A stretch of DNA of 64,000 bases from a virus. The stretch is from the UHGV virus genome UHGV-2031204, one strand, 5' to 3'. This document shows positions 3,543 through 58,590 of this stretch, piece by piece. Position 1 is the first letter of the stretch. Every line of letters begins with the position of its first letter. Under the pieces are notes generated by a model. It ran no database searches. It worked only from the letters and a program-made list of their open reading frames with translations, and was not told the origin of the DNA. The translations under genes and the position numbers were made by a program.

Positions 3543-4041
3543 GAGTTATTTTATCATACCTGACTATCAATTTATTTGCGGACCGCTGACGGAGTTTGAT
3601 CCGAACGCGATATTGCGCGAAGTCTGTACCGATTTAAATACGGTACTGAATTATGTTTGGGAGTATGCGTTAACGGGGCACTTCCCGAAGTTAAATCGTT
3701 ACGCGTTACAAGGAACGTTTGATTTTATTGGACGGGAACTTAACAGCCACGGCGTCTTGTTGGAGGGTGAGCGTGCGTTAGAGTATGTAAGAGCGACGCA
3801 GGAGGTAGCGAAGGCTTTTGTGACAGCGGTGTCGACAGAGCCGTACTGGTTTACACGATACGGCCAGTGGATAGGTGCACGTTATTGTGCACAAAAGCCT
3901 GGCGCGGTAGAGTTCCTTGTAAGGTACGAAGAGGTGAAGTATCCTGAATACGAGGAACCCGCTTTGTTACAACAACTCACCCCAAAAATACAAACGCTTA
4001 CAGAAATGTTGCTGGGTAATCTGGCTGGGAAGGTCTTATAA
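3532..4041 (+). CDS. hypothetical protein (169 aa)
   Basis: ORF with ATG at 3532, overlapping the upstream stop by 11 nt. Confidence 0.5.
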   Translation: MVRESYFIIPDYQFICGPLTEFDPNAILREVCTDLNTVLNYVWEYALTGHFPKLNRYALQGTFDFIGRELNSHGVLLEGERALEYVRATQEVAKAFVTAVSTEPYWFTRYGQWIGARYCAQKPGAVEFLVRYEEVKYPEYEEPALLQQLTPKIQTLTEMLLGNLAGKVL

Positions 4042-4547
4042 TGCAGTATGTTTATTACGTCGCGCAAGAGGTACAAAGTTACGGTAGAACCCGTTTTTAC
4101 GAAGCAGTACGTGATGTGTTGGTGGACGTTTTAGAAACGAATCGTTTAGACGTTTTCGAACACGATATTCGTCGACTCTATGAAGACTTCGGTACCGCAT
4201 ACATTATCGCGGCGAAGTCCCATAATCCCGAGTTGTTAAAAGAACTGCTTACTGTTACTGCATACGACGAAAATGCTATTCCTGGCGAAACCGTAGAAAG
4301 TATCACCTTCCTTTCTACGATAGGTGATGAAGACAGTCATCTTGCGGCAATTTGTCACGCGGCGGATATTCTACAGCGTGAGCTCCAGTCGCAGACAGGA
4401 TTGGCTGCGTTAATTAATTCTATGTTTCCTGGTTCATTGACGCGTTGGATTGGGGAAACATTCAGCGATCTGGTGTTGGTCTGCTATGAAACTGTTTATG
4501 GAAATTTCGGAAGTGTATCTCCCGGAACGCCTACATTCGCGGGTTGA
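4041..4547 (+). CDS. hypothetical protein (168 aa)
   Basis: TAATG stop/start overlap with the upstream gene, suggesting translational coupling. Confidence 0.55.
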   Translation: MQYVYYVAQEVQSYGRTRFYEAVRDVLVDVLETNRLDVFEHDIRRLYEDFGTAYIIAAKSHNPELLKELLTVTAYDENAIPGETVESITFLSTIGDEDSHLAAICHAADILQRELQSQTGLAALINSMFPGSLTRWIGETFSDLVLVCYETVYGNFGSVSPGTPTFAG

Positions 4548-4917
4548 GAATGCGGATATTGGTTCGGTAGCACCGTATATGGCGTACTGGTTCCTGGCGA
4601 AGTATGCAGAAGAATCTGTACGTTCAGTGGTACGTCGTTTGGGTGAGGGTGAAACGTTTCTGACGTTCATCCCACCCAACCATCAATTTATTTTCACACA
4701 ACTAGCACAACTGTTCTCAGTCGATGAAGTGCGTATATTCTCCCATTCTTTGTTGCAGTTTGAAATAGAAAAGGATGTGGACTATTTTCGTATCCGTAAT
4801 TTGGTGGAAACACTCTGGCGACAGTCTGGGTTAACGCCGGAAGAAGGATCGAAGAAAACCAAAGTATCTTTGTTTATGAATGAGATTGGGAGTGGTTTTA
4901 TTTGCATAGAGGTTTGA
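4486..4917 (+). CDS. hypothetical protein, start uncertain
   Basis: Track ORF 4450..4917; candidate starts are ATG 4486 or ATG 4579, neither with a clear Shine-Dalgarno sequence. Confidence 0.4.
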   Translation: MKLFMEISEVYLPERLHSRVENADIGSVAPYMAYWFLAKYAEESVRSVVRRLGEGETFLTFIPPNHQFIFTQLAQLFSVDEVRIFSHSLLQFEIEKDVDYFRIRNLVETLWRQSGLTPEEGSKKTKVSLFMNEIGSGFICIEV

Positions 4918-5532
4918 ATGTACAAAGTACGGGGTGATCATTTCATCCGTCCGAACTTAGGGTTACTGGAATACGCCACAGGTGGCGATTTCTATAAAGA
5001 TAAGTTAGTAAGAACCCTAATGCGCTTTCGCTGTATGCGAGTGTCTTTTCCTGCAACGATAGAGACGACGGATGAAGCAACGCGATATATCAATACCGCG
5101 ATTAGCGAGTTATCGAAAGCGTGTAACTTTCCTGGCAATAAAAGGGAACTGAAAGAGTTAGACAGTTACCTGAAACGGTTAAACGATGAATACCGGCAGT
5201 GGGAATTTAACTCAATGATGGAAACCAGTTATACGGAAGACATGATTGAGGATATGCGACCCCTCCTGGAAATCTATGAGTTATGTAAAATACAAGGCGG
5301 GTCTTCTTGGGATGTGTTGCGTGAACACGCGATAGAAATTCTTCGCGATAATATTCTCCAGATTTACGAGAATGATTGCGAACCCGTTATCCAGCTCTTT
5401 CGTACCGCACACAAATGTGGTATTGAGGGCCTGTGTTTAAACTTATCGTTACACGATGACTTAGGTACCGTTTCAGGTGTTTACGCTACGTTCCATCTGG
5501 ACATCACAATGTTGAGGAGTGATAATGTTTGA
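4918..5532 (+). CDS. hypothetical protein (204 aa)
   Basis: ATG immediately after the upstream TGA (4915..4917). Confidence 0.55.
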   Translation: MYKVRGDHFIRPNLGLLEYATGGDFYKDKLVRTLMRFRCMRVSFPATIETTDEATRYINTAISELSKACNFPGNKRELKELDSYLKRLNDEYRQWEFNSMMETSYTEDMIEDMRPLLEIYELCKIQGGSSWDVLREHAIEILRDNILQIYENDCEPVIQLFRTAHKCGIEGLCLNLSLHDDLGTVSGVYATFHLDITMLRSDNV

Positions 5533-5938
5533 TTTTAGTAACATTGAACCAGGGTCTATCGTAAATATTGTTTACGATACCCCGTTAAAAGGTAATGAAA
5601 CGCGAGTGCGTGTACTCGCGTCTAAAGTCGGCTATGAGTTTGCAAAAACCGCAGGCGAAGATCTGGCTGCTATCCAGAAGAACATTTATTCGTCGTTAGT
5701 AGCACAACCTTCAAATGACCTCACTGCGTATAACTATATGCTGTTCCGCGATTCTACAGGTAAAGTAGGCGTTGCGGCAGATGCATGGGTACGCGAAGTA
5801 AGGGTAATTACCAGTTTGACAGCACGTTTTGTTGTACAGCTCGATAACAAGCAGGAGAAAGAAGACCTGGAAGCTGCGTTGGCAGCACGTGGGTTTAATG
5901 ATGTGGAAATCGAGATCATTGAAAACGCGGCAGGTTAA
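5519..5938 (+). CDS. hypothetical protein (139 aa)
   Basis: GAGGAG upstream of the ATG; followed by the terminator at 5945..5986. Confidence 0.55.
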   Translation: MIMFDFSNIEPGSIVNIVYDTPLKGNETRVRVLASKVGYEFAKTAGEDLAAIQKNIYSSLVAQPSNDLTAYNYMLFRDSTGKVGVAADAWVREVRVITSLTARFVVQLDNKQEKEDLEAALAARGFNDVEIEIIENAAG

Positions 5939-37132: not shown

Positions 37133-38467
37133 ATGGGATATTGGCAAAATCACATTGCATCAGTTGCGGATGCAAAGGTTGTAGCCGCAGAATCGATTAA
37201 ATTCCAAGACAAAAAGAAGCTGGCAGAATTGGCTGATATTATTGCTAAGTTTCGTGGAGCAGGCGATTTCAGTCCTGCTGGCTACGAAAGTGCCGGGGTT
37301 TCGGATTGGGTATTTAAGAATATCGGCATTACGATTCACTTTAAGAACGGTGGTGAACTGGGTCTTGCTGACGTTGCTTTTGCAGGTGTGGAACCACCGA
37401 AATTGGATGCAAACAGTCCAATCATCGCATCGATGACTCGTGCGCTGTACGCAGGTAACAAAGACCTGGATATGTACAGTAAGTTCATCAAAGAAAACGA
37501 GCTAAACTCAACAATCGATGACAGCAGTGCAAAAATCAGTGGCGATCTGAGCAAAGTGGGTTCTCCGCTTTATCTTACCCCGGTGCTGTTGGAAAAATTA
37601 AATTTGACCGATCTGGAAATCGCCTCGGTGATTCTTCACGAAGTCGGGCACATCTACTATTATTTCCGCACTCTGATGCGCACTGTGGTGACTGATTTGC
37701 TGGCGGATGCTGCGGCTAACCGCATCATGGAAACGGAAGACCAGAATGTCCGCTTGCGTATCGTTAAAGACGTAGAGAAGATGCTGAACACGAAAGTGAA
37801 TCAGCCAGAAACGATTTGTACTGAGTACAAAAAAGAAAACGTCTACATGCACTTGGTCACACAGCTGTTATTAGATCGTCCGTTTATTAGTGGCAGTCAA
37901 GGCTTTGCTAACAGAACGTGGGAACGTGCTGCGGACGATTTTGCTTCCCGTTTCGGAGGCGCTCCTTATCTGGCTTCCGCACTGTATAAAATGGAAACCA
38001 GTTCGTTCTATTTGCTGCGGAACTCAGCGTATATGAACATGGGTGTCCATTTGACAGTAGAACTTTTCCGCGTGACTGCGCTGATAGTCTCTTCTACGAT
38101 TCCAATCATTCCGGTGATCTCCGTGACGTTCGGAATGATCTTAAATGACCCGGATAACACCATTTACGATCCGCCACAGCAGCGTTTTGAGGCAATGCGA
38201 CGTACACTCGTTGAAGAACTCAATACGATTAAAGACAAAAATACGAAAGCTGCTAACGAGCAACGTAAACGTATTTTAGATGGTATTGCGGTTATCGACA
38301 AGTTATTAGAAACCGTAAAAGATAAAGATAACTTGTACCAGTTTATCTGGAATACTTTAACGCCGAAGGGTCGTCGCTCACGTGCTGCAGTTGATTACCA
38401 GCGCGCGATTGGGAAGTATATGTCGAACGATCTTCGTATTGCTTCAGCCATGTTTAATGTCGAATAA
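37133..38467 (+). CDS. HExxH-motif protein (possible zinc metallopeptidase) with hydrophobic segment
   Basis: Track ORF trimmed to the ATG at 37133 (AAGGA upstream); contains VILHEVGHIYY and a likely membrane helix VTALIVSSTIPIIPVISVTFGMIL. Confidence 0.45.
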   Translation: MGYWQNHIASVADAKVVAAESIKFQDKKKLAELADIIAKFRGAGDFSPAGYESAGVSDWVFKNIGITIHFKNGGELGLADVAFAGVEPPKLDANSPIIASMTRALYAGNKDLDMYSKFIKENELNSTIDDSSAKISGDLSKVGSPLYLTPVLLEKLNLTDLEIASVILHEVGHIYYYFRTLMRTVVTDLLADAAANRIMETEDQNVRLRIVKDVEKMLNTKVNQPETICTEYKKENVYMHLVTQLLLDRPFISGSQGFANRTWERAADDFASRFGGAPYLASALYKMETSSFYLLRNSAYMNMGVHLTVELFRVTALIVSSTIPIIPVISVTFGMILNDPDNTIYDPPQQRFEAMRRTLVEELNTIKDKNTKAANEQRKRILDGIAVIDKLLETVKDKDNLYQFIWNTLTPKGRRSRAAVDYQRAIGKYMSNDLRIASAMFNVE

Positions 38468-38481
38468 GTAAAGGTAAAATC

Positions 38482-38925
38482 ATGACGCATAAAGTTTCTT
38501 TAAATTCCCTGGTTCTGGACTTTAAACGTACGAACGAGGGTAAAGGTGTACAGGCACAACGCGCACTGACTGGCCTGGTCGCATTCGCATTGGCTTATAA
38601 TACCGATATGCCCGATAATGGTCCGTTTGGGTCGAATGAAGTGTCGCAGCTAAAGCTTCGCCCGCTGATGAAAAATGTTGTTTCGGACGTAAACGAGCTT
38701 TATTGTGTCGATCTGGGCAGTATTGAAGATTTGACAGTGGCACTGTTTTGTAACCGCTACGATAGCGCTTGGGGTGGTCGTCGCGCTATTGAAAACTTCT
38801 CTGTCCGTGAGATTTTCAATGAAGCCTTGGGCGACGATGTATGGGATACCGTTAATCTGTGGCTGGAACGTTTCATGGAAACGGTGAAATTCTATATGGA
38901 AGAAACGCGAGGCGAGCTGGTATGA
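38482..38925 (+). CDS. hypothetical protein (147 aa)
   Basis: ATG ORF 14 nt after the upstream stop. Confidence 0.5.
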   Translation: MTHKVSLNSLVLDFKRTNEGKGVQAQRALTGLVAFALAYNTDMPDNGPFGSNEVSQLKLRPLMKNVVSDVNELYCVDLGSIEDLTVALFCNRYDSAWGGRRAIENFSVREIFNEALGDDVWDTVNLWLERFMETVKFYMEETRGELV

Positions 38926-40592
38926 GTATGGAGATGACAGCAAACATTGCGCAACCGCAGTGGAAACTCGATGAACTTCCTGCACTGTTAGAACAGCGTA
39001 TGGAAGAACGCATCGATTCTGTTAGCCAACTCAATCTCTACATGCAACGTAATGAAGCAGACCTGATTTACGGTTCTCGCCTTATCGCGCAAATTGAAGC
39101 GATCTTACGGGAAATACGTAATGCAGGGTTGAACCGTGATGTTGCTGTGGCGACTGAATCGTTGCGTCCTGGCACAATCCCGAAGGCGGTACAAAGTGTT
39201 CTGACGTCGAATTATTCCAAAACACACCAGAAAGAAACGGTGGTGGCATTAGAGTCTTACGCTAATTTTGGTAAGATTAGCCTTATCGTGATGGTGATGA
39301 TGGGGATAATGAAAATCCTCAGTTGGATTATCAGCAACGCCGTTCCTTTTGCAGGTGCTGCGAATATTGACGGGAACGACTATCGTGAGAAACTGGAAGA
39401 GAAGTTGGCCGATGTTCCTTTCACAGAGCGCCTGAAAACAACCGTACTGAAAGAAGTTTATCTGGTACTGTCAAAAGGTTTGAAAGACAGCGAGTTAAGC
39501 AACCTGGAGTTATCTCTTTCGCTGGCCGACGACGTTTTCGTGAACATGGAAGCTGAAGAGTTTCTAAATAAACTCGCCGCTGCGTTAGGTAAATCACCGT
39601 TTATCGATACGTTTAAGAACCATCTTAAACGTCGGCAGAATGAGTTGCAGGTTATTCAGGATCTGCTCGATACGCTGCTTCGGACGAATATCGGTTACGG
39701 TGTATTTGACTTCGGGGTTGCTGAGGAAGTCTATAACGGTTTGCCGCCTGATGTGAAACGTGCTGGAGTGAACATTCCGTCAGATATTCAGTTCAACTTA
39801 ATGAGCACGCTTCTTGACAGTTTTGCCGGTGCGCTTCAGGACTTAGACCAGTCGCTGAAAGACATCAAAACGTATTACCTGTCGAATAATCCGAAGGTAG
39901 GCACATCGCAAGAGAACCAAGTCGCCGCTGTGCATCTGGTTCGTGCGTTAGGCGAGATCAATGGCCGAATTGAATATACTGCCACGGAATTTGGACGACA
40001 GAAAGGTAGCCCGGGTCCAATTTTGCGTGTAAAAGACAAGGTTGAGCTTCTCGGCTATACCACACGTGAATTAGACAACGGTTGGATGATTGCGTCGATC
40101 GGTGCTAACTCTTTCTTTGGCTCCACAACAAATCTGGAGATGATGCGCCAGGAGTTGAGCTTAAGTAACGGGGATTACCGTGAGCTGTTGGCATGTCTGA
40201 TTACACTGGCACGTAGTGGTATCTCGGATGGTGTGGCGAACACCGCACTAGACAAGTATAAGGTGTTGGAGAAACGTGTCGATCAGGTTGTAAAAACCTT
40301 GAAAGATATGGCGCGCCAATCACGTTCTGGCGTCGACAGTCAGAAATGGCAGGCGATGGAACAGGCGTTTAAAGACCAGGTGACGCGAGGGGAGAACTTT
40401 AACCTTCATGGTCGTGAGCTGACCACGATGATGGTGTTAAACCCTGACCGTAATGTCTGGGATTCTGTTGCGCACAGTGCAAACATGATTAACATGTGGT
40501 GCAAGGCCGCAGGGTCTATGGCAACGGTGTTGAAGCGTGCCAAGTCCAACCCACTTGTGAAAGGCGGGAAGTTCAATAAATTGATTGATTAA
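38922..40592 (+). CDS. hypothetical protein with one hydrophobic helix (about 556 aa)
   Basis: Track ORF trimmed to the ATG at 38922 (ATGA overlap with the upstream stop); segment ISLIVMVMMGIMKILSWIISNAVPF. Confidence 0.55.
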   Translation: MSMEMTANIAQPQWKLDELPALLEQRMEERIDSVSQLNLYMQRNEADLIYGSRLIAQIEAILREIRNAGLNRDVAVATESLRPGTIPKAVQSVLTSNYSKTHQKETVVALESYANFGKISLIVMVMMGIMKILSWIISNAVPFAGAANIDGNDYREKLEEKLADVPFTERLKTTVLKEVYLVLSKGLKDSELSNLELSLSLADDVFVNMEAEEFLNKLAAALGKSPFIDTFKNHLKRRQNELQVIQDLLDTLLRTNIGYGVFDFGVAEEVYNGLPPDVKRAGVNIPSDIQFNLMSTLLDSFAGALQDLDQSLKDIKTYYLSNNPKVGTSQENQVAAVHLVRALGEINGRIEYTATEFGRQKGSPGPILRVKDKVELLGYTTRELDNGWMIASIGANSFFGSTTNLEMMRQELSLSNGDYRELLACLITLARSGISDGVANTALDKYKVLEKRVDQVVKTLKDMARQSRSGVDSQKWQAMEQAFKDQVTRGENFNLHGRELTTMMVLNPDRNVWDSVAHSANMINMWCKAAGSMATVLKRAKSNPLVKGGKFNKLID

Positions 40593-40642: not shown

Positions 40643-43597
40643 TTAATCGGCGGTAGTATCGTGACGGTTATAGACAATAACGATATCGTCTTTAAGTCCG
40701 ATGTCACCGCTGGCCTCAATGTCCAGCTTTTTACCTATAGTTGCTCTTGATGCTTCCGAAACAACGGTAAAGAGACGCATGTCTTTATCTGGTCCCATAG
40801 CATCGAGTTCAACACCGATAATAGACGCATCGAGGGTTTCACTCAACGCATTACCGATTTCTGTTGCAGAGATTGTTAGATGACTACCCAAGTAATCATT
40901 GATAACCTGAGACGTTTTCTTACGAATCTGCGTTAAGAGCTCGGTGTTATTACGGTTAGCAGCTGTTAGGTAATAACGCACGGTGAACTGGTTTTCCGCA
41001 GGGACAGGCGTCACTACCCCGTCCTCGGTACGGGCGTCGATATACCCCATTGTTGTAATCGGCACAAAGTAACCTTCGGTACGTTCTAACAACATAGGCT
41101 TCAAAGTTGGCAATATTACCGTAACGTAGTTAACGATGTTTTCGATAACTTCATTCAGATACGATTTTGCAGAAGGTGTCGTCGCGAATTTATATCGCGC
41201 ATCGAATACCGCCATCTCACTACGGAATTTGATAGAACGCGATTTCGCAATCTTCGGATTGCCGAATTCGTCTTTAACTAAGTCTCCTTCACGATGTAGG
41301 ACGATCTGTTGTCCAGCCTCGTCGAGTTTTGGATCACCTTTACGATGCTCGTACGTAATCTGAAGTGGTGGCGTGCGACCTGCGTCGTAGGTGTAGATTG
41401 GTACACCGTTCTCATCGCGTTTAACCACATCGATTTCCCACGTTGCCATCACGTCTTTTTCGTAATACTGGTAGTTAATGCTGTCAGTAACAGCACGCGC
41501 TTTACGCCAGTAGTACGTCATTGCTTTACCCAATTCGATTTTGAAAATCTCGTGAGTAATACCAATCGCATCGCGTGACGGGGCAGTGATTAACGCATCC
41601 ATTTCCGCACGTTCGTAATTACCAGGATAATAACCGGTGCAGCCGTAGAACAGGTTGAAGTCCGTCATCAACGGTACAGGCGTTTCCGTGGGTGTGCTAC
41701 TACTAATGCGTGTATTCGTTAGCATTAATTCGTCGTTACGGTCAACGTCTAGGTTGGTTTCCAGCAGGAATTCCCATACGCGCTCACTACCCTGTTTACC
41801 GACTAACGTACCGTTGATATACGCTAAAGTGTTGTCTGCGTTACGTGGACGGAACGATAGCTGTGCAAAAACTTGATCGTCAGTCAGTGCTTGATAAGGT
41901 GCCTCTGACTTCGTTACGGTACGCAATACATAACCGGCCTCGGTCTTTTCGATAGTGTAGTCGGCTGTTACCACACTGAGTTCCGTGCTTACGTTAGTGG
42001 CAATAAAGCGTTTGGAGTTTAACGTCGGTTTATCTAATTGATAAATACGAACGTCAATGGCTTTATTGTTGATATCCACAACGTAATGGAATGGTGTAAA
42101 GAGATAACGATTAGCGTTGGCCGCGTTAATCAAATCTTCTTTACGCATGGTTTTTGCCAAGACCGTCATCTCCGCATCAACCGTCAGGCTGGTGTCGGTG
42201 AACCGATAAAGTGTGTCAGGAAGAATCGTCAGGCGATTACCGTTAACCTTTACCGTCGGTAGATTAACCAATTCATTCCAGGAGAAATAGAACGGTGCCG
42301 TGATCGTCCCGATGGGAGAACTGACATTGGGAATTGTCGATTCGAGCATCGGTGCCGTTAAGAAGTATGTACGGCTAGTAACATAGTCGTTTGGCTTCGA
42401 CAACGTTAGACCGTAATCAGAAACCGTTGCTTCTAATTGTTTCTCCGTTACAGGGAGTTTTCGTGCACCTACAGCGTTATTGACTACACGTGTACGCAAA
42501 TCTTCGAACGTGAGCTGGCTACGACCACCTGACAACATTTTACCTGCTTTTGCAGCCATCTGTTTGATGGAAAAACTCTTAATCGGGTTAACGTAGTTTT
42601 CGTCGTATTCACCGTTTAAATCACGCAATGTAAACGTGTATTCGTCAGACGGATAAGCCGAGATATCGACACTTAAAGGTCCTAAGGTCGTGTAGATATC
42701 CATACGAATTTCACCACTGACCAAATTCTTCGCCATGTAGATCGAGGGGATAGTACACCGTATAACACCGTCACCGACCTGGATTAACGCGGTTGGGGTG
42801 TTGGGGTCGTAAACGTCACGACTGTGCGTATGCTGAATTTCAACCCACTTGTTATCGTTGGTTGATTTCATCCACACCCTTACGTAGAAAAATTTGTTAG
42901 TGTAATGGCGGGTCATGACAAAGGTATTTTTCCCTGCAACGGTGTCACTTTCGTTCTTCACCGCATACTGCATGACCGGGATATGGATTGCCAGTAGTTG
43001 CGAGGCCGTGGTGTTAGACGACGTCAACTCCCAATCCAGCGCATTCGTCGACACAGGAGAAATCGGTGACTGTGTTTCGGTAATCCAAAGAACTTGAAAC
43101 GCTGGGTTTTCATTGGTACCGTAAGGAAGTACCCTGATTTCAATCGGGTACTGGATGGCAAAGGTGTAACCTGACACCGTGAAAACTGTGTCACGTGGGA
43201 TAACAACCTTACGCACACCCGCAATCTGTAAAGGGTACGCCTTGGAGATTAAACTATCAACATCGATTAATAACAACAACTCGGTGGTTGAAGGTTGGGC
43301 GAACACATCAACGTAGTCCACATCGGACATATGTCGGAACAGGTCATCGTACGTTTGCGCCATCGATGGAAATGTCTTTGGCACTGATTCTTGCAACCCC
43401 ATAAGCGTTGCATGGCCCAACATTGTCCCCATTTCCGCCAAATAAACAACAGGGTCTGTTGGGTCACGTAACACTATTTGGCCTTCGGCGTCTTCTACAT
43501 CCAGAAGCTGATTCAAGAGCAGTGTTTGCATCGCTGCCGGATGGTGGGCAAACAACAATATGTTCTTTGCCAAAGTATCGTAAGTCGTAGAACTCAT
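40643..43597 (-). CDS. large hypothetical protein (984 aa), possibly structural
   Basis: Long minus-strand ORF; 1-nt stop/start overlap with the upstream minus gene. No motif recognised. Confidence 0.6.
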   Translation of the reverse strand: MSSTTYDTLAKNILLFAHHPAAMQTLLLNQLLDVEDAEGQIVLRDPTDPVVYLAEMGTMLGHATLMGLQESVPKTFPSMAQTYDDLFRHMSDVDYVDVFAQPSTTELLLLIDVDSLISKAYPLQIAGVRKVVIPRDTVFTVSGYTFAIQYPIEIRVLPYGTNENPAFQVLWITETQSPISPVSTNALDWELTSSNTTASQLLAIHIPVMQYAVKNESDTVAGKNTFVMTRHYTNKFFYVRVWMKSTNDNKWVEIQHTHSRDVYDPNTPTALIQVGDGVIRCTIPSIYMAKNLVSGEIRMDIYTTLGPLSVDISAYPSDEYTFTLRDLNGEYDENYVNPIKSFSIKQMAAKAGKMLSGGRSQLTFEDLRTRVVNNAVGARKLPVTEKQLEATVSDYGLTLSKPNDYVTSRTYFLTAPMLESTIPNVSSPIGTITAPFYFSWNELVNLPTVKVNGNRLTILPDTLYRFTDTSLTVDAEMTVLAKTMRKEDLINAANANRYLFTPFHYVVDINNKAIDVRIYQLDKPTLNSKRFIATNVSTELSVVTADYTIEKTEAGYVLRTVTKSEAPYQALTDDQVFAQLSFRPRNADNTLAYINGTLVGKQGSERVWEFLLETNLDVDRNDELMLTNTRISSSTPTETPVPLMTDFNLFYGCTGYYPGNYERAEMDALITAPSRDAIGITHEIFKIELGKAMTYYWRKARAVTDSINYQYYEKDVMATWEIDVVKRDENGVPIYTYDAGRTPPLQITYEHRKGDPKLDEAGQQIVLHREGDLVKDEFGNPKIAKSRSIKFRSEMAVFDARYKFATTPSAKSYLNEVIENIVNYVTVILPTLKPMLLERTEGYFVPITTMGYIDARTEDGVVTPVPAENQFTVRYYLTAANRNNTELLTQIRKKTSQVINDYLGSHLTISATEIGNALSETLDASIIGVELDAMGPDKDMRLFTVVSEASRATIGKKLDIEASGDIGLKDDIVIVYNRHDTTAD

Positions 43598-44895
43598 CAG
43601 TTATTACCTGTCGGTAGTGAAGCGGCATTAGCGTTATCCAGTAATCCCGCTTTCTTGAGAATATGTTGGTAGTCTGCCTGGTAAACATACCAGGTAAGTT
43701 TGCGTCGTACGGAATCGATGTGTGGATAACCGTAATAGTTAAACAACGGTAGCAATTGTGGCGCGATGGGTACTAATTGGTCACTAGCAATCGGGATGAA
43801 GTTGCCCGATTGAATAGAGCCTGGTTGCGGGAGCATATCGGGATTAAAAATGGAAACGGTGCGGTTAAACATTTCCATGTATAATGGATCGTTAAACCGC
43901 GCACCGATAGCTTGCCAGTTAATAGTAATCGTAACATCGTCGTTTAACTGCGGTTTGGAGTTATCAACGTTCGCCATTTGTCCCGCGTTATCGTTCATCG
44001 GCCATGCGACACAAATCGTCCAGAAACGGGTGATGTTCCCTAAGGCATCGTAACGCATCCCGTAGATTCGCGATTGATAATCGATTCTGCGTTGAATGGA
44101 GTTACGCATTTTCGGACGGAACTTACCCATCTTCACACCAGACATATACTCCAGCCACACCCCCATCATTTTCATTAATGGGTCGCCATAGGGGTTGTTT
44201 AATGACATGCTGATGGAAAAGCTGTTGTTAACTTCATGGGTAGAGTCAACCATCCCCCACTGTTCACGCATTAAACCTTCACTTGCCATCCAGTTATCAA
44301 TAGATTGATCGGGTGCACCACTAAGGCTAATCAGCTGCGTACTGAGTATTGGTATGAACGCTTGTAGATTATCGAATTTTACTTGAGGCATAAACGGCGT
44401 ACCTAAGCGATTCTTCCGCCTACCGTTTTCCATAGGTGCGTCTGTAAACCCGAGTTCAAAATCAGGGTCAAGCGCAGCTAAAATCGAATAATCTATAGAG
44501 TCCTTTGGCTGCATTGCCATGTTCGACATTTTACGAGACTTAGCAATGTTGTCGTAACACAGGTTAAAATCGGGCCGGGTAATAAAAGTTAGTCCACCGT
44601 ATTCTCGGTTGATTGGCGTGGGGTTAGACGCCATCATATGGTTGAACCCCATGTAGGGGTTGGTCAAACGCTGCGCAGCAAGACCCAAACCTACAGTAAG
44701 ACGGATACGATCGTTCCATGCCGTAAGTTCAGTATTAGCGTCGTAAGGTGTCGGGGGGTTAGCATTACTAATCCGTCCGTCGAAATACCCTGCGACCGAA
44801 GGCACTGCGTCCGCATTATTCGGATTGTGGAGAGAATCGTCGTAATCAGTATTCGGGTCATACCCCGGATCGTTCTTATCTGTCTCGTCACTCAT
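43597..44895 (-). CDS. hypothetical protein (432 aa)
   Basis: Minus-strand ORF with GGAG 6 nt upstream of its ATG; acidic N-terminus. Confidence 0.6.
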   Translation of the reverse strand: MSDETDKNDPGYDPNTDYDDSLHNPNNADAVPSVAGYFDGRISNANPPTPYDANTELTAWNDRIRLTVGLGLAAQRLTNPYMGFNHMMASNPTPINREYGGLTFITRPDFNLCYDNIAKSRKMSNMAMQPKDSIDYSILAALDPDFELGFTDAPMENGRRKNRLGTPFMPQVKFDNLQAFIPILSTQLISLSGAPDQSIDNWMASEGLMREQWGMVDSTHEVNNSFSISMSLNNPYGDPLMKMMGVWLEYMSGVKMGKFRPKMRNSIQRRIDYQSRIYGMRYDALGNITRFWTICVAWPMNDNAGQMANVDNSKPQLNDDVTITINWQAIGARFNDPLYMEMFNRTVSIFNPDMLPQPGSIQSGNFIPIASDQLVPIAPQLLPLFNYYGYPHIDSVRRKLTWYVYQADYQHILKKAGLLDNANAASLPTGNN

Positions 44896-44921
44896 CTTTA
44901 ACTCCGGAGTTCATTAGGAAA

Positions 44922-46028
44922 ATGTTAGAAAAAACGTTTGAGACAAGCGTTGTCTCTTTCCTCTCCAGACTTCCCATGCTGTTTCGTTCGCGTGCGGAGT
45001 CGATGGAGGAATTTAACTCAGTGCTCTATAACGAGCACATTACCTTAGTCGAACAAAGCCTGCTGGGTTTAGATTACCTTCCGGGAATTCTGGAGAAAAT
45101 CCAAATTTTGCTGGCAGGAAACCAATTAACGGCTATCTCACTGTTAACCGGTGTACCGGATGTTGACATTATCGGTACCCTGGATCAGGTCAGCACACGT
45201 CGTAGTGCGCTTGATAACGCAGTCCGCACCGGTTCCCGCTTAGCAGCGCTTGCAGTCGGCGAATCTGCCCGTTATGGTTTACCATCATACGATAAAATCG
45301 GCATTGCAGTCGGCGAATCTGCCCGACGGGTCGCCCAGGAATCAAAAGGTTCGGTCAGTGGCGGGAAAGGTGATCCGATTAAACAGCTTTTCGATCAAGA
45401 AGGGTTGTCCAACGGGAAAATGTTCTCAGTAACATTCGAACGTGACGGTAATAAAGTCGAACTCCCAATGCGTTTACGTTTGGATGTGAAATCCTTACCG
45501 ACCGAACAAATTGAAACACTGATTGCGTTCAGTGACCAGACGAAAACATTCTGGGAACGTTGGCTGCGTGCACGCGTTGGCGCGTTGAGTTACGTAAAAG
45601 ACATTGCGTTCTGTAACGACCTGGTAGAAGAATATCGTAAGAACCGTTATCGCGATAAGTCCGGTTATTACCGTAAGATGATGGAGAAGAAGAACGGTAA
45701 CTGGTTGTCTGGCCTGCTGTCTTTGGCACCGTCTATCAATAACGCCTCTTCCGTTATGGTGGTTTCTCAAGACACCATTGACGGCTTGACCGCACAACTA
45801 GGTGGTGAATTTGACGATTTCAATATCCGTCAGCGTGTGTTCAAAGACACCTTGACTGTCTACTATGTTGTTGTGGACACCACCTGGAATCGTGTCACTA
45901 TTTATACCCGTGGTCAGAACGGCTCTCAGGAACTCGATAAATCTGACTTTAGTAAATCGAAGTCTGGTAGCGCCGATGTAAATAAAATCATCGAAGCGTA
46001 TCGCTCTGGCGCTCAGCCAGTTCTTTAA
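44922..46028 (+). CDS. hypothetical protein (368 aa), start uncertain
   Basis: + ORF starting 26 nt from the divergent minus gene; poor RBS spacing at 44922. Confidence 0.45.
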   Translation: MLEKTFETSVVSFLSRLPMLFRSRAESMEEFNSVLYNEHITLVEQSLLGLDYLPGILEKIQILLAGNQLTAISLLTGVPDVDIIGTLDQVSTRRSALDNAVRTGSRLAALAVGESARYGLPSYDKIGIAVGESARRVAQESKGSVSGGKGDPIKQLFDQEGLSNGKMFSVTFERDGNKVELPMRLRLDVKSLPTEQIETLIAFSDQTKTFWERWLRARVGALSYVKDIAFCNDLVEEYRKNRYRDKSGYYRKMMEKKNGNWLSGLLSLAPSINNASSVMVVSQDTIDGLTAQLGGEFDDFNIRQRVFKDTLTVYYVVVDTTWNRVTIYTRGQNGSQELDKSDFSKSKSGSADVNKIIEAYRSGAQPVL

Positions 46029-46038
46029 GGGGTAAGGC

Positions 46039-46974
46039 ATGGCAATCCCGAATATGCTCGCTATGTTGTTGCCGAGCTTTGAAGCAACAAACTTGAAAAA
46101 CCAACTCTCATCAAACTGCGATGCGATTGGTGAACAACTTTTACCGCGTTTCCAGTCTCTGCAAGAGCTGGTAGCGTCGAAAGAAGGCAAGCCGTTTAAA
46201 TCGAAAACGGTGCAGGACATGTCGGATGATTTGGTTAAATACCTGCGGAATTCCGGTCTGGAAGCCAAAGGTCTCCGTAATCCTTCGATGCTGGAATACA
46301 TCGTTGCCTCGATGGAAAACACGCTACAATTGCGTTCTTTCTTAGACCAATGTATTACGCGTGACATTGGTAAAGCGTTAGTCACGTCTTCAATGACGTT
46401 TAATAAATTAACGGTGCTCAGACTGCTTGACCTGATTGACTTCTTTACAGGTTACAGTGCCACCTTACTTAACTACGTAACCGCAGAAGAAATAGCCGCC
46501 GTAGAAGGCTCGAATATTGAAGTAAAAGGCGTCGGTCCGAATGACCTTCAATACCTCAATACTCGTTCTATTTCTTACTGCATTGCTGTCCGTGTGCTGG
46601 CAACGCCGCTGAATAAACTGAAAGCGGATTATGCGGAAATTCCTGAAGCGATCTTTAACGACGAAACTTACGGTGAGTTGGCGCAACAGTTCGGTTCGAG
46701 CTCCGTTGACCCACTGGGAATGAGCAGTGTACCGTTCCCAATCTCACTGATATTGCGCGTACGTTTGAATATCGCTGAACGGCAGATGGATAAGTACGAC
46801 GAGTGTGTAGAAGCGGCGAAAGCGGCGGAACTGCGTATCTTACTTTACAAAAAGCAAGTCGCAGAAGGTAAGGGTGATGCCCACATTGAGAAACTGATTG
46901 AAATCAGTGAAAAGCATCTGATGGAACTCAAGCACAAGCGTGAGCGTCTTGAAAAGAAATACGGTTTAGCGTAA
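46039..46974 (+). CDS. hypothetical protein (311 aa)
   Basis: ATG ORF with AAGG upstream. Confidence 0.55.
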   Translation: MAIPNMLAMLLPSFEATNLKNQLSSNCDAIGEQLLPRFQSLQELVASKEGKPFKSKTVQDMSDDLVKYLRNSGLEAKGLRNPSMLEYIVASMENTLQLRSFLDQCITRDIGKALVTSSMTFNKLTVLRLLDLIDFFTGYSATLLNYVTAEEIAAVEGSNIEVKGVGPNDLQYLNTRSISYCIAVRVLATPLNKLKADYAEIPEAIFNDETYGELAQQFGSSSVDPLGMSSVPFPISLILRVRLNIAERQMDKYDECVEAAKAAELRILLYKKQVAEGKGDAHIEKLIEISEKHLMELKHKRERLEKKYGLA

Positions 46975-46991
46975 ACCGTTAGGAGAGGCGA

Positions 46992-47552
46992 ATGTTTGAG
47001 CACGATAGTCCTGAATTTAATGTTGCTGTAGAGCGCATTAAATCCTACATGTCGATTTTATCGAAAAACCCAATCGACACACACGATGACGAGGTTATTC
47101 ACAAAACACTGGAAGCCGCCGCCGTTATTTTACCGTACTTTCGTCTGATGGCTGCGGATTCTTTGCAGCAAGTATTATATGACGAATATCCGCAGGTCGG
47201 ATTTACCTTTAATACGTTTTATAACGAAAGTGTAGATTTCTTGCTGGATGGTAAGCGACGTAATGTGACGTTAGGGCAGTGGTCGACTTTGCTGTCGTCG
47301 TATATGAACGATGTTCGTAACACGAAGAATGTTGAACAGACGGGTGCATTAGGCTCGCGTCTATTAGCTGCTGCGTTTGGTCGCCGAGGTACTGTACGTA
47401 ATATGGGCTCTGCTCACCAATCCGTTGAGTGTAGCAAACGTCTTTTATCTTATGCAGACCATGAACTGCTGGCACGCTGGATGACGCGCCCGAACGGGTT
47501 GTCCGACATGATCTCGTCGTTAGCAGTGTTTTTGAAAATCGCACGTCCCTAA
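46992..47552 (+). CDS. hypothetical protein (186 aa)
   Basis: ATG ORF with AGGAGAGG upstream. Confidence 0.55.
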   Translation: MFEHDSPEFNVAVERIKSYMSILSKNPIDTHDDEVIHKTLEAAAVILPYFRLMAADSLQQVLYDEYPQVGFTFNTFYNESVDFLLDGKRRNVTLGQWSTLLSSYMNDVRNTKNVEQTGALGSRLLAAAFGRRGTVRNMGSAHQSVECSKRLLSYADHELLARWMTRPNGLSDMISSLAVFLKIARP

Positions 47553-47611
47553 GGGGGCCCCTCATTCTAGGGGCGTGTAATTGGGTTATATAACCAAAGG
47601 AAATAAACGAA

Positions 47612-48883
47612 ATGGCAAATTTCGCAAAAACTCGCGCCGCTCGTGAATCGATGGAAGCGGCCGATGAAGTAATCGACGGTATCAGCAACGTTGAACCGGC
47701 AGAAGAGAACCTGGACGTCCAACTTGCGGACGTAGCATCTATCGACGGTCAGCTCGATCAGCTGGAAACCGACGGTGAAACCCTGGCTGCCGATACCGAG
47801 CGTACTGAAGACGCTATCGAACAGGCGGAAGAAGCCGTTGCTAACGGTGAAGAAATGCCGGAAGAAGCGGTTGCCCTGCACGAAGTGGCACAGGAATCCA
47901 TCGCACGTCGTTGGTGCCTGGAACGTACTAAACTGGCACGCGAATCCTATCGCCGTGGTCGTGGTATGACTGCTGCTGCCCAGGAAGGTTGGAAAGAAAC
48001 CCTGAAAGATCTTTACGATCGTTTCATTCAGTTCTGTAAAGAAGTGATTGCGAAGATCAAAGACCTGAAACTGAAATATTTCAACGTCGGTAAGACCGCA
48101 CAGAAACGTGCGAAGAAATATCAGGAAATGCTGCGTAAGCTGGGCAAACAGAAGAAAGATGAGATCTCTGGTGGCTTTATCACCAAGCTGTCTATCGAAG
48201 GTAAATTCGATGCCGCTGGCTCTATCGCTATTGCGAAAGAAGTTACCGCAGGTAAAGCTAAAGGTTCCATCGCTGTTCTGGAAAAACAAGCTGGTGAAGC
48301 TGTGACTGCCGTTACCAAAGGTGACGATGACGCATTCAAAGCAATGCGTGGCGATCAGCCGGTAGAACTGTTTGGTAAAGCTGCTTCTAAACTGCACACT
48401 CTGCCGAACTTTGAAAAAGGTGATGCGTCTAAACTCCTGGCTCTGCCGGGCAACGCTTACGTTCAGGCTGGTACTAAAGAACTGGCTGGCGGCCACAAGT
48501 TCACCGCAATTGCTTTCATGAGCACCGGTGACGCTTCTGACGATAAAGACGTGAAAACTCCGTCTGTTTCTGAAATGGCTGGTGCTGCTTCTGCTCTGGA
48601 AGCGATCGGTAAAGGTTTCGAAGCCGTACTGAAAGATTTCCGTGCTTACGATTCTGAAATCGTGAAGCTGCAACAGGCTGCTGAGAATGCTGCTAAGGCG
48701 CTGAACAACGAAAAAGACGATAGCAAGTGGGATGGCCTGCGTAACGCACGTCAAGCTGCCGATTGGTCTGTTAAGAACTACCAGACCCTGAACCGCGCAG
48801 TTAGCTATGTTGCTAACACCGTTATTAGCGGTCTGAATGGCTACCTGGGTGCTGGTATCGGTGCTTACGAAAAATCTAAATAA
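47612..48883 (+). CDS. highly expressed protein, tandem paralog A (possible head internal protein)
   Basis: 423 aa; strongly codon-optimised; starts MANFAKTRAARESME, acidic N-terminal region, ends GYLGAGIGAYEKSK; paralogous to 48966..50231. Confidence 0.8.
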   Translation: MANFAKTRAARESMEAADEVIDGISNVEPAEENLDVQLADVASIDGQLDQLETDGETLAADTERTEDAIEQAEEAVANGEEMPEEAVALHEVAQESIARRWCLERTKLARESYRRGRGMTAAAQEGWKETLKDLYDRFIQFCKEVIAKIKDLKLKYFNVGKTAQKRAKKYQEMLRKLGKQKKDEISGGFITKLSIEGKFDAAGSIAIAKEVTAGKAKGSIAVLEKQAGEAVTAVTKGDDDAFKAMRGDQPVELFGKAASKLHTLPNFEKGDASKLLALPGNAYVQAGTKELAGGHKFTAIAFMSTGDASDDKDVKTPSVSEMAGAASALEAIGKGFEAVLKDFRAYDSEIVKLQQAAENAAKALNNEKDDSKWDGLRNARQAADWSVKNYQTLNRAVSYVANTVISGLNGYLGAGIGAYEKSK

Positions 48884-48965
48884 TCATTTAGATTCGTAGT
48901 TCCGTACAGTTCTTGAAATAAATCATCAGGGGAACAATACGTTCCCCTTAGAGGAAAAGCTTAAA

Positions 48966-50231
48966 ATGGCGAATTTCTACAAAAACAAAATTGCTCGTGA
49001 GTCTATGGAGTCTACTTCTACTGTAGTTCCAGACGGCATCGAACTGCCAGCAGAATCCGTAGAAGGCACTCTGGCCGATATCGAGCATGACACCAAACCG
49101 ATCGAAGCTCTGGACGCTGACGCTGAACTGCTGGCAGAAGACGGCGACGAAACTGACGCTCAGCTGGATGTTCTGGATGAAGCTCAGGCTGCTGCTGACG
49201 GTGAAGGTGCAGGCGAAGACGGTGAAGAACCGATGGATGCCGAAGAAGATATGCCGGACGACGCTGCGACTGCGCTGGACGTTGCTCAGGAATCTATCCG
49301 TTCTCGTTGGAACTTCGAACACCGTTCTTCTGTTGCACACGAATCCTACGGTTCTCGTAACCGTCGTCAGGTTGCTCGTGAATCCCTGTGGGAAGACATC
49401 AAAGCCTTCCTGGGCCGTATTCTCGATTGGCTGAAAGAACAAGGCCGCAAACTGAAAGATCGCTGGCTGAAATTCCACAACCAGGGTAAATCTATTCAGG
49501 CACGTGCTAAGAAATACGATGAAGTTATTCGTAAGCTTGGCAAACAGAAGAAAGATGAGATCTCTGGTGGCTTTATCAAGTCTCTGTCTATCGACGGCAA
49601 GTTCGTCGGTGATAATATTCCGAAACTGAAAGGTATCCTTAACCAGGTCTCCTCGTTCTATAGCGCTAAGATGCCTGCCATGGCCGCTAAAGCTGCTGAA
49701 GTGGTTTCCGATGTTACCAAAGGTAATGGCGTTAAAGTTGAAAAACTGAAAGCCGACTTTACCGAACTGTCCAAACAAGACAGTCTCCAAAACTTCAAGC
49801 TCGGTAACATGGCGGTGAAAACCGAGTATGACAACGAAGGCGGCTTCAGCTCCACCTTTGTTGAAGCTGAAAACAGCGTTGAAACTAGCGTGAAAACTCC
49901 GTCTGTTGGCGAACTGGCCAAAATCAATGCTCTCTTCAACGAAGTGGGTAAACAGATTGAGAAGAACGTTCAGGATTATCGTAAAGTCGAAAGCGCGCGG
50001 AAAACCTTTGAAGATAATATCGATAAGCTCCTGAAAGAAGTCGATAAAGTTAAGATCGACGAAAAACCGGAACTGACCGAAGGTGTACGTGCTGCCCGTC
50101 GTTTCATCACCAGCGTTAACCAGGGTCTGTCTCTGGGTGAGAAGGTTATTGCTTCTACTCAGAAACACCTGGCCGGTGGTCTGAACGGTTACCTGAGTGC
50201 CGGTATCGGCGCTTACGAAAAATCTAAATAA
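48966..50231 (+). CDS. highly expressed protein, tandem paralog B (possible head internal protein)
   Basis: 421 aa; starts MANFYKNKIARESME, ends GYLSAGIGAYEKSK; shared central block RKLGKQKKDEISGGFI and about 80-90% DNA identity to paralog A in conserved stretches. Confidence 0.8.
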   Translation: MANFYKNKIARESMESTSTVVPDGIELPAESVEGTLADIEHDTKPIEALDADAELLAEDGDETDAQLDVLDEAQAAADGEGAGEDGEEPMDAEEDMPDDAATALDVAQESIRSRWNFEHRSSVAHESYGSRNRRQVARESLWEDIKAFLGRILDWLKEQGRKLKDRWLKFHNQGKSIQARAKKYDEVIRKLGKQKKDEISGGFIKSLSIDGKFVGDNIPKLKGILNQVSSFYSAKMPAMAAKAAEVVSDVTKGNGVKVEKLKADFTELSKQDSLQNFKLGNMAVKTEYDNEGGFSSTFVEAENSVETSVKTPSVGELAKINALFNEVGKQIEKNVQDYRKVESARKTFEDNIDKLLKEVDKVKIDEKPELTEGVRAARRFITSVNQGLSLGEKVIASTQKHLAGGLNGYLSAGIGAYEKSK

Positions 50232-50249
50232 TCCCTGATTGTTTAGTAA

Positions 50250-50295
50250 GAGAACCACCCTGTAATGGGGTGGTTCTCTCTTTTCTTTTTTTTTC
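50250..50295 (+). terminator. strong rho-independent terminator
   Basis: Stem GAGAACCACCC / GGGGTGGTTCTC with loop tgtaat, then a long T-rich run ending in T9. Confidence 0.7.
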
Positions 50296-50300
50296 GATTA

Positions 50301-50336
50301 AAATAATTTTCAGATATATATTACCTAGGTGAGATT
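50301..50336 (+). promoter_or_regulatory. conserved promoter-like motif, copy 6 (TTCAGATATATATTACCTAGGTGAGA)
   Basis: 26-nt stretch identical to the copy at 58563..58588; about 50 nt upstream of the ATG at 50385. Confidence 0.5.
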
Positions 50337-50384
50337 ACACAGTAATCTCTTTACGACTTGTTTATTACGTTTAGGAGAAATATC

Positions 50385-51026
50385 ATGAGCCGCATTAATT
50401 TAACTGATTTTGTTGATGGTGTTGTGTCTACGGATAAAGGTGTTGTTACGATGGTGGCACCGAATAGTAAAGTTGTTACTTTAAATCCGGTAGAACTGAT
50501 TTCTATTTCTACCTGGTTGCGCTTACTTTCTGGTAAGAAACCTAAAGACCAAGCGAAGGGTGGCCTATTAGTTGGTACACGTGAGTTTGTTTTCAAAGAC
50601 ATAACCCAAGATAAACTGGACAGCATTGCTAAAGAACTGAACGGCAAGCATAAAACTCGCGACATCGGGTGTGCCGAATATGACGGAGTAACGTACCATG
50701 CGTTTCTTGATAGTCACGTAGCATTGCGTGAAAAAGAAAATGGGATGTACGATTCAGTTTGTTTCTTTCACTTAATCGCACCAACAGAAAACGAAGCTGT
50801 GTATGAAACCGTTGAAAAATCGGCGGAAGCTGTTATGGAAACGGTGTCAGAACTTATAGAAGGGATGAAAAGAATCCCACGTGTGTTGAAAGTTACTGAT
50901 GGGGCTTTCGATTGTTTTAAATTATTACCCCTAATAGCTAGTAAAGAATACGAAGATGAGAACACCTTCGGACTATTCGAAATTAGTCTTTCGGAAGCAG
51001 TTGTTACTTTCTTTGAAGATTTATGA
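50385..51026 (+). CDS. hypothetical protein (about 213 aa)
   Basis: Track ORF trimmed to the ATG at 50385 (AGGAG upstream), placing the promoter motif outside the gene. Confidence 0.55.
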   Translation: MSRINLTDFVDGVVSTDKGVVTMVAPNSKVVTLNPVELISISTWLRLLSGKKPKDQAKGGLLVGTREFVFKDITQDKLDSIAKELNGKHKTRDIGCAEYDGVTYHAFLDSHVALREKENGMYDSVCFFHLIAPTENEAVYETVEKSAEAVMETVSELIEGMKRIPRVLKVTDGAFDCFKLLPLIASKEYEDENTFGLFEISLSEAVVTFFEDL

Positions 51027-51032
51027 GATAAA

Positions 51033-51061
51033 AAACCCTCTACGGAGGGTTTTATTTTTTC
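51033..51061 (+). terminator. rho-independent terminator
   Basis: Stem AAACCCTC / GAGGGTTT with loop tacg, then a T-run. Confidence 0.65.
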
Positions 51062-51080
51062 GACCTTTAGGAGAATAGAA

Positions 51081-51632
51081 ATGAATAAATTTAATATCTT
51101 AGACGCTGAAGTCGTATCTGAAACCAGTTTACAGCAGGAAATCTTTCGTATTCAGTTTGGCGATAAAACCATTATCGTCCCACGTCCGGTAATGATTGGA
51201 CTGGCTATTTTTATTAACTGTGCGCATTGTAATGGTTCTCAACTCTCCACGCTCACTTACAACAATTACGAATTCTATATTCCAGAACACCTGGAATACG
51301 ATCGCTTCATTGCTTCACGTCCGTTCTACAAGTTTATGTTAGACGCAGGTTATTCTACGCTGACGAAAACGTACATTCGTGATTATTCGAAGCTGGAAAC
51401 CTTTTACCGTCGTCGTGGTTATCGCGTTCCTGAGCCTATTGACGGTTTTCAAACCCGCGTTGTATTACTTAAACCGCTAGAAAAAGAACTGGCTTGTTAT
51501 AAACTTGATATCGAGCAGAAGTTACTGCGTGAAGATTTGTTGAATTTATACAACCAGCTTTCAGTTGTACCGAAAAACACAGTAGAAAACATTCTACCTG
51601 ATTACGGAATTAGACAATACCAGGAAGGTTAA
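51081..51632 (+). CDS. hypothetical protein (183 aa)
   Basis: ATG ORF with TAGGAGA upstream. Confidence 0.55.
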   Translation: MNKFNILDAEVVSETSLQQEIFRIQFGDKTIIVPRPVMIGLAIFINCAHCNGSQLSTLTYNNYEFYIPEHLEYDRFIASRPFYKFMLDAGYSTLTKTYIRDYSKLETFYRRRGYRVPEPIDGFQTRVVLLKPLEKELACYKLDIEQKLLREDLLNLYNQLSVVPKNTVENILPDYGIRQYQEG

Positions 51633-58560: not shown

Positions 58561-58590
58561 AGATTTCAGATATATATTACCTAGGTGAGA
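58561..58590 (+). promoter_or_regulatory. conserved promoter-like motif, copy 7 (TTCAGATATATATTACCTAGGTGAGA)
   Basis: Identical over 26 nt to the copy at 50311..50336; about 50 nt upstream of the small gene at 58637. Confidence 0.5.

Follow-up and report, generated by a model that had tools for sequence, protein, structure and literature searches.

The window analysed here is the whole stretch of 64,000 nucleotides (nt) of the virus genome UHGV-2031204. This report concerns two adjacent genes on its + strand, gene A (47612..48883, 423 amino acids) and gene B (48966..50231, 421 amino acids). A sequence-only reading of this DNA had proposed two neighbouring open reading frames (ORFs) of ∼420 amino acids, and we found both at exactly the coordinates given there, on the same strand. 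A leader precedes gene A, a stem-loop lies between the two genes and an intrinsic terminator follows gene B. Both products belong to the PF12699 family of internal head or ejection proteins, with A as the ortholog of SPN3US gp53 and B as the ortholog of SPN3US gp54. A profile search of all six-frame ORFs of the window gave only A and B, and no third PF12699 paralog was found in it.

We observed that the matches to PF12699 (phiKZ_IP, phiKZ-like phage internal head proteins) were far above the cut-off (gathering score) of 27 bits, with 242.9 bits (E 8.7e-72) for A and 195.0 bits (E 3.1e-57) for B, and that they span positions 2–387 of the 387 positions of the model. PHROG 2497 'internal head protein' was matched with E values of 2e-147 (A) and 9e-120 (B). 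Identity to the two SPN3US proteins is 68% (gp53) and 34% (gp54) for A, and 60% (gp54) and 34% (gp53) for B. The same division holds for all 16 sequences available from 8 genomes, which sort by paralog type with same-type identities of at least 0.51 and other-type identities of at most 0.36. The annotated genomes belong to the genera Seoulvirus, Erskinevirus, Machinavirus and Wellingtonvirus. Because the paralog types separate cleanly across these four genera, the duplication predates them, and a recent duplication was ruled out on the same ground.

Among GenBank phages, the closest to protein A are the Erwinia phage Asesino (72.7%) and SPN3US (68.4%), and the window is part of an SPN3US/Asesino-like jumbo phage. 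IMG/VR contigs carry copies of gene A that are 95–98% identical, and relatives that close are known only as metagenomic contigs. Close relatives of both paralogs also occur on many contigs of ∼220–227 kb in assemblies that bear the label of Salmonella enterica, Shigella or E. coli isolates (proteins P0002, P0062, P0066, P0068, P0077 and others). This jumbo-phage lineage may often be carried along in cultures of bacterial isolates.

We also compared the codon usage of the 56 genes of the window. A and B ranked first and second in codon bias, with fractions of E. coli-optimal codons (Fop) of 0.786 and 0.759, respectively (median 0.49; z +3.7 and +3.4), and effective numbers of codons (Nc) of 31.5 and 36.4 (window median 50.5). 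The strong codon optimisation that had been claimed for both genes is therefore borne out, as they are the top two of the 56.

Predicted cleavage sites and domain anatomy of the two proteins

In SPN3US, the prohead protease gp245 cuts after the Glu of A-x-E motifs (PMC10052503). Its cuts in gp53 were mapped at ARE-12, AQE-95 and AQE-125, giving the mature N-terminus (E)GWKETLKDLFER, and cleavage was obtained in vitro too (PMC10052503). In gp54 the cuts lie at AQE-124 and ARE-137, and the mature N-terminus is SLWDDIK (PMC10052503).

We searched A and B for the motif A[RQH]E[SG]. The N-terminal pro-region of each protein contains four occurrences, when only 0.05 would be expected, and none of the 20,000 shuffles reached four. 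The mature parts of A and B have zero occurrences.

All the sites are on the + strand. In A, ARE-12 (47639-47647), AQE-95 (47888-47896) and AQE-125 (47978-47986; followed by GWKETLKDLYDR) align with the mapped gp53 sites of the same names, the last being the maturation site, and ARE-111 (47936-47944) aligns with gp53 ARE-111, where the motif is there but unmapped. In B, AHE-126 (49335-49343) aligns with the mapped AQE-124 of gp54, and ARE-139 (49374-49382), followed by SLWEDIK, aligns with the mapped maturation site ARE-137, followed by SLWDDIK. The remaining two, ARE-12 (48993-49001) and AQE-109 (49284-49292), align with gp54 ARE-12 and AQE-107, both present as motifs but unmapped. In all, 5/5 sites mapped in gp53 and gp54 have their counterpart at the aligned position in A or B.

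Four A-x-E columns are retained in 16/16 sequences from the 8 genomes, with Q, R, H or G at the middle position. A kept A-x-E with a variable x is the pattern expected of a protease motif. Other A-x-E triplets lie in the mature parts, among them the AYE close to the C-terminus, and these lack such conservation between genomes. The N-terminal enrichment and the alignment with the sites mapped by mass spectrometry in SPN3US uphold the claim that the two proteins carry conserved A-x-E motifs. The main maturation cuts, which the sequence-only reading had not singled out, are predicted to the residue: after AQE-125 and before GWKETLKDL in A, and after ARE-139 and before SLWEDIK in B.

These predicted cuts would divide each protein into an acidic and a basic part. 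In A, the acidic pro-region (47612..47986, amino acids 1–125) has a mass of 13.7 kDa, an isoelectric point (pI) of 4.2 and a net charge of −19, and the predicted mature domain (47987..48880, amino acids 126–423; 32.1 kDa, pI 9.3) starts with GWKETLKDLYDR. In B, the pro-region (48966..49382, amino acids 1–139; 15.1 kDa, pI 4.1) has a net charge of −27, and the predicted mature domain (49383..50228) covers amino acids 140–421 (31.3 kDa, pI 9.4). The two predicted mature masses match those published for the SPN3US proteins, 31.5 and 30.3 kDa.

An AlphaFold2 (AF2) model of A, built on a 72-sequence alignment, reached a pLDDT of 84.8 and a pTM of 0.83 and consists of long helices with a beta subdomain at about residues 276–315. 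At E<=0.001 the model matched 104 BFVD entries, predicted virion or internal head proteins of jumbo phages, with TM scores up to 0.81. Among solved structures, Foldseek found no significant match to the model, and a single-sequence search returned nothing meaningful. The acidic pro-region produced profile matches to Snf7/ESCRT-III (E 0.013) and to STENOFOLIA; these were marginal and compositionally biased, and we took them as coiled-coil noise.

Predicted role in the head and after ejection

SPN3US gp53 and gp54, designated 'Paralog family A', are considered to be ejection proteins; they belong to the most abundant proteins of the virion, with >600 copies of each inside the head (PMC5694885). 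Their SC/M values of 21.0 and 20.2 make them about equally abundant, and a genetic result showed that their incorporation into the head requires gp243 (PMC5694885). The PF12699 proteins of phiKZ and Goslar are likewise high-copy and proteolysed, and upon injection they are found in the host at the early infection vesicles. The label 'inner body' for such proteins is now disputed, the current terms being ejection (E) or injected proteins, and the role of PF12699 has been termed 'a key unsolved mystery' (Goslar preprint).

The PF12699 and PHROG 2497 matches, the orthology to gp53 and gp54 and the conservation of the mapped sites support the earlier suggestion that A and B are internal head proteins processed at S/A/G-x-E by a prohead protease of the jumbo-phage kind. 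Judged from these comparisons, A and B are very probably the 'Paralog family A' of SPN3US-like jumbo phages, that is, abundant, capsid-internal, protease-trimmed proteins that are injected into the host. They are a further example of jumbo-phage internal head proteins that have already been described. For this uncharacterised SPN3US-like jumbo phage, the two genes with the strongest codon bias of the window would then encode the predicted major head proteins that are packaged and ejected. In nucleus-forming jumbo phages, PF12699 accounts for thousands of protein copies per virion, which are injected with the DNA.

From what is known of SPN3US and phiKZ, a precursor of ∼45 kDa would be produced late and in very large amounts from each of the genes A and B. 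The conserved N-terminus MANF...ARE/S (cut at the slash) together with the acidic pro-region of ∼125–140 residues would steer the precursor into the prohead, a step for which SPN3US needs gp243. The prohead protease (gp245 ortholog, MEROPS S80) would cut after Glu at the four A-x-E sites and free a basic, helix-rich domain of ∼31–32 kDa, which would stay among the packaged DNA. This mature domain would be ejected into the host together with the genome. The pro-region fragments would exit the head, or some of them may be retained at the inner capsid wall, as happens in phiKZ.

Some points weigh against this scheme. For presence in the virion, copy number, cleavage and ejection, the scheme relies on homology with SPN3US, phiKZ and Goslar, and codon bias is only a proxy for expression. 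The AHE-126 site of B has His at the x position, where none of the mapped SPN3US sites compared has one. The protease and gp243 genes are missing from the 64-kb window, in which no match to either of them or to gp244 was found. In the AF2 model, the pro-region helices are packed on the mature domain, and the mode of targeting is not thereby revealed. As to the protease, an ortholog of gp245 (81% identity) lies on the IMG/VR contigs 3300045988_113438 and _078609, which also bear copies of gene A that are 98% and 97% identical, respectively.

The same proteins might instead act mainly inside the capsid, as a DNA-organising or charge-neutralising core ('inner body') or as a cement of the wall, injection being incidental. 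The basic mature domains (net charge +10 and +11 at pI 9.3–9.4) would suit contact with DNA, and the gene directly upstream of A matches the vertex-binding family of phiKZ gp91. The capsid structure of phiKZ shows that the helix-rich C-terminal domains of gp93 and gp162 are freed by cleavage, and their N-terminal fragments stay on the inner capsid wall and cement the capsomers (PMC11297242). Propeptide peptides of gp53 remain in SPN3US heads (PMC10052503), which also favours a function within the capsid. However, the passage of the phiKZ and Goslar proteins into the host and their presence at early infection vesicles argue against it, recent high-resolution maps of both phages show no inner body, and several of the phiKZ PF12699 paralogs withstand transposon insertion. 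On this evidence we consider a mainly capsid-internal role possible but rather doubtful.

A pore-forming role was also weighed, in which the mature domain would be a membrane-active helical bundle like the alpha-pore-forming toxins of the ClyA/Hbl/Nhe type that, once injected, would help to build or perforate the early infection vesicle. The modelled topology, long helices with a beta element inserted at one end, would fit such a toxin; toxins of the ClyA family (HblL1, MakA, SmhA/B, NheA, ClyA, Hbl-B and AhlB) dominate among the weakest matches in the Foldseek PDB list, and relatives are injected into a lipid vesicle. None of the Foldseek matches was significant, however, the best one to a toxin having an E value of 0.57 and a TM score <= 0.18. 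Neither single-sequence nor profile searches gave a sequence-level match to ClyA-type toxins, and the phiKZ and Goslar papers from the literature search make no mention of ClyA. We therefore regard this role as highly improbable.

We compared this pair with known systems. The SPN3US genes form the same two-gene tandem with the same neighbours, and their products resemble A and B in length, in the N-terminal tag MANF..K..ARES.E, in the positions of the cleavage sites, in nearly the same mature N-termini (GWKETLKDL and SLW[ED]DIK) and in the predicted mature masses. SPN3US is a different phage lineage from that of the window, and some details differ: the N-terminal 15 residues are identical between the paralogs in SPN3US and show 4 differences in the window, whereas the central block described below is identical between the paralogs in the window and not in SPN3US, and the x residue of AHE-126 in B corresponds to the Q of AQE-124 in gp54.

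The phiKZ proteins gp92-97, gp162 and gp163 and the Goslar proteins gp53-58 share with A and B the PF12699 family, a helix-rich predicted fold and a location of their genes beside those of the vertex-binding complex. Their sequence similarity to A and B is seen only with profiles. High virion copy number, cutting after Glu by the S80 prohead protease and injection have been described for the proteins of those phages and are predicted for A and B as well. The number of paralogs is 8–9 in phiKZ and 6 in Goslar vs 2 in the window, and the cleavage motif is S/A/G-x-E in phiKZ vs strictly A-x-E in the SPN3US-like phages.

The internal proteins IPI, IPII and IPIII of T4 work in a similar way: an N-terminal peptide targets them to the prohead and is removed by the prohead protease after Glu, and the basic product is packaged with the DNA and ejected into the host. 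They are not homologous to A and B, for which Pfam gives PF12699 alone. Their targeting peptide has 10–20 residues vs 125–139 here, and copy numbers and sizes differ too. Another protein of comparable build is phiKZ gp86 of the vertex-binding complex (PDB 8y6v chain G), an elongated helical bundle that is processed by the protease and encoded in the same head-gene neighbourhood. It has no detectable sequence similarity to A and B, and it is a fixed component of the capsid wall, not a high-copy ejected protein.

Sequence exchange between the two copies

A and B are 36% identical over their full length (BLASTP, E 8e-56), and the codon-aligned nucleotide identity of the whole genes is only 53%. 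Some blocks are much more alike. The N-termini read MANFAKTRAARESME in A and MANFYKNKIARESME in B. The central block RKLGKQKKDEISGGFI (48134..48181 of the + strand in gene A) is identical in both proteins, and its DNA agrees at 47/48 nt with an exact run of 40 nt. At the C-terminus, the last 14 codons are identical at 38/42 nt. Protein and codon alignments thus agree with the earlier description of shared N-termini and a near-identical central block in genes that diverge elsewhere. That description had also given GAGIGAYEKSK as an identical C-terminus; this holds for the last 10 residues, AGIGAYEKSK, but is off by one at the leading residue, which is G in A and S in B.

We asked of these blocks how far selection on the proteins would account for their likeness. 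If the blocks were alike only through purifying selection on the protein and a shared codon bias, without any exchange of DNA, a certain level of DNA identity would be expected anyway: 105/150 amino acids that are identical between A and B already share their codon across the pair, so the high identity of the blocks is partly expected. The block around AQE-95 and the C-terminal block are conserved in all genomes and in both paralog types, which is likewise in favour of selection. The central block, however, uses the same non-preferred codons (AAG, GAT, GAG, GGC and TTT) in both genes, and its near-identity had a probability of P=0.002 in a simulation from each gene's own codon usage. Within the other seven genomes, the paralogs are only 46–68% identical in this block.

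A 95% relative, IMGVR_UViG_3300045988_095954 (L010), retains a central block of the paralog-1 type, KQDKDNISGGFI. It differs from the central block of gene A at 9 nucleotides (5 differences being synonymous), and at each of these A agrees with B. Conversion-type sites number 31 in the gene, and 9 of them fall in the 48 nt of the central block (binomial P=1.5e-6). Both the direction and the clustering of these differences argue against selection without DNA exchange. From sequence comparison, they indicate that a tract of at least 37 nt (48136-48172) was converted from B to A in the lineage of the window, L008 and L009.

Exchange in the opposite direction was seen in L010 itself, in which the first 47 nt of paralog 2 are the same as those of paralog 1 (3001-3047 and 4349-4395), and this again argues against the selection-only explanation. 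The same is true of the N-terminal 15 residues, whose identity over 8 genomes is 0.87 within a genome and 0.71 between genomes, for orthologs and paralogs alike (nucleotide Mann-Whitney P=0.005). The C-terminal tails also co-vary within genomes. Selection without exchange is in our judgement an improbable account of the blocks.

Recent short-tract gene conversion very probably accounts for the near-identical central block, the events themselves being well supported. The duplication is old, as it predates the four genera, yet its shared blocks have been repeatedly re-homogenised by short-tract gene conversion. We did not find this conversion process described in the literature; the identical N-termini of the SPN3US paralogs were, having been noted already by Ali et al.

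A further observation concerns exchange between phages. In L009 (IMGVR_UViG_3300045988_078609; genes at 3001-4272 and 4355-5620), gene B differs from that of the window at 169 nt (43 amino acids) and gene A at 68 nt (13 amino acids). This suggests that alleles of gene B may have been exchanged in mosaic fashion between phage lineages.

Leader, hairpin, terminator and neighbouring genes

The leader of gene A comprises 59 nt (47553..47611, + strand), with G+C-rich inverted repeats, the palindrome GGTTATATAACC (47584) and the Shine-Dalgarno sequence AAGGAA. The inverted repeats are nested, CACGTCCCT...AGGGGCGTG and GCCCCT...AGGGGC. This leader is nearly invariant in 11 genomes of the four genera, among which the coding DNA is ∼25–30% different, and because it does not vary it shows no covariation.

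Between the two genes lies a stem-loop (48928..48948, + strand) of 8 bp with a 5-nt loop (−14.1 kcal/mol, z −3.6). A hairpin without a T-run had been proposed at 48938..48958. Its existence and the lack of a T-run on the + strand are confirmed, but the true site is ∼10 nt upstream. The hairpin ends 1 nt before the Shine-Dalgarno sequence of gene B, AGAGGA (48950..48955, + strand), which lies 10 nt before the ATG and is invariant in 10/10 aligned genomes. We observed the hairpin in all 10 of these genomes, across four genera, although the sequences of its stem differ among them. In the alignment, 93.8% of the cells of the stem are paired, as compared to 37–57% when the partners were slid, and the unpaired cells all come from one mis-registered row. 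Compensatory changes were seen at 4/8 pairs. We did not find this conserved, covarying hairpin described in the literature.

A hairpin at the 3' end of gene A could be a transcription terminator that makes this gene a separate and more highly expressed unit. It is stable and conserved at that place, and phage-encoded RNA polymerases need not rely on canonical terminators. As an intrinsic terminator, however, it was rejected, as the stem is there but TAGAGGAAAAG comes next on the + strand, with no T-run; gene B, by contrast, has a canonical terminator behind it in every genome. We recognised no promoter between the hairpin and gene B, the gap from the stem to the Shine-Dalgarno sequence being a single nucleotide, and the about equal abundance of gp53 and gp54 in SPN3US fits co-transcription. 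Termination between the two genes is thus unlikely. More likely than termination, and plausible, are roles in the stability or processing of the mRNA, or in keeping the ribosome-binding site of gene B accessible.

The terminator after gene B (50249..50296, + strand) is strong and intrinsic, with a 14-bp stem followed by a T-run, and an equivalent one is present after the second gene in every relative examined. Its position and its conservation in relatives suggest that A and B end one transcription unit. We found no sigma-70-like promoter in 44800-51200, compared to 6.8 ± 2.6 expected from shuffles. This lack of sigma-70-like sites is in keeping with transcription by phage RNA polymerases, independent of that of the host. 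The phiKZ-type late promoter motif TATG was not visible in the leader of A or of B.

A sequence just beyond the terminator was also noticed. GATATATATTAC occurs only twice in the window, at 50313-50324 and 58569-58580 (+ strand). The first copy stands just past the terminator of gene B, inside the motif TCAGATA[TG]ATATTACCT..GTGA, which is conserved in all relatives. GATATATATTAC looks like the AT-rich early-promoter motif of ∼10 nt of the virion RNA polymerases of jumbo phages.

The shared blocks and the hairpin could be read together, which we put forward tentatively. The first 15 residues, the central KQKKDEISGGFI block and the tail at the C-terminus might serve as 'address or docking labels' for common partners (the prohead core or gp243, the protease, and some partner of the mature domain). 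Recurrent short-tract conversion would keep these labels alike in each genome, and the hairpin might be a dedicated RNA element that balances the output of A and B from one transcript. The conservation of the sites across genera, the acidic/basic split and the three conversion-matched blocks could guide experiments on recognition by the assembly machinery.

The order of genes around the pair is the same in SPN3US and six Erwinia phages (7 annotated genomes): an opposite-strand tail-tube-like gene, gp50-like, gp51-like and gp52-like (PhiKZ_gp91 family) genes, paralog 1, paralog 2 and the terminator. The gene directly upstream of A (46992-47552) matches the Pfam family PF25618 (phiKZ gp91 vertex-binding protein; E 6.6e-07), and by this match the cluster mirrors the phiKZ/Goslar region in which vertex-binding-complex genes lie beside PF12699 genes.

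Three other SPN3US substrates of the prohead protease have orthologs in the window, and their sites mapped by mass spectrometry are kept. These are AAE-20 in the gp45 ortholog (37133-38449), ATE-79 and ALE-111 in the gp47 ortholog (38922-40589), and AQE-140, the sole A-x-E of that protein, in the gp50 ortholog (44922-46028). The tail-tube-like ORF (43597-44895, − strand) matches the Pfam family PF23971 'putative phage tail tube protein' with an E value of 4e-176. It is divergent from the head-protein cluster, and the two start codons are 26 nt apart.

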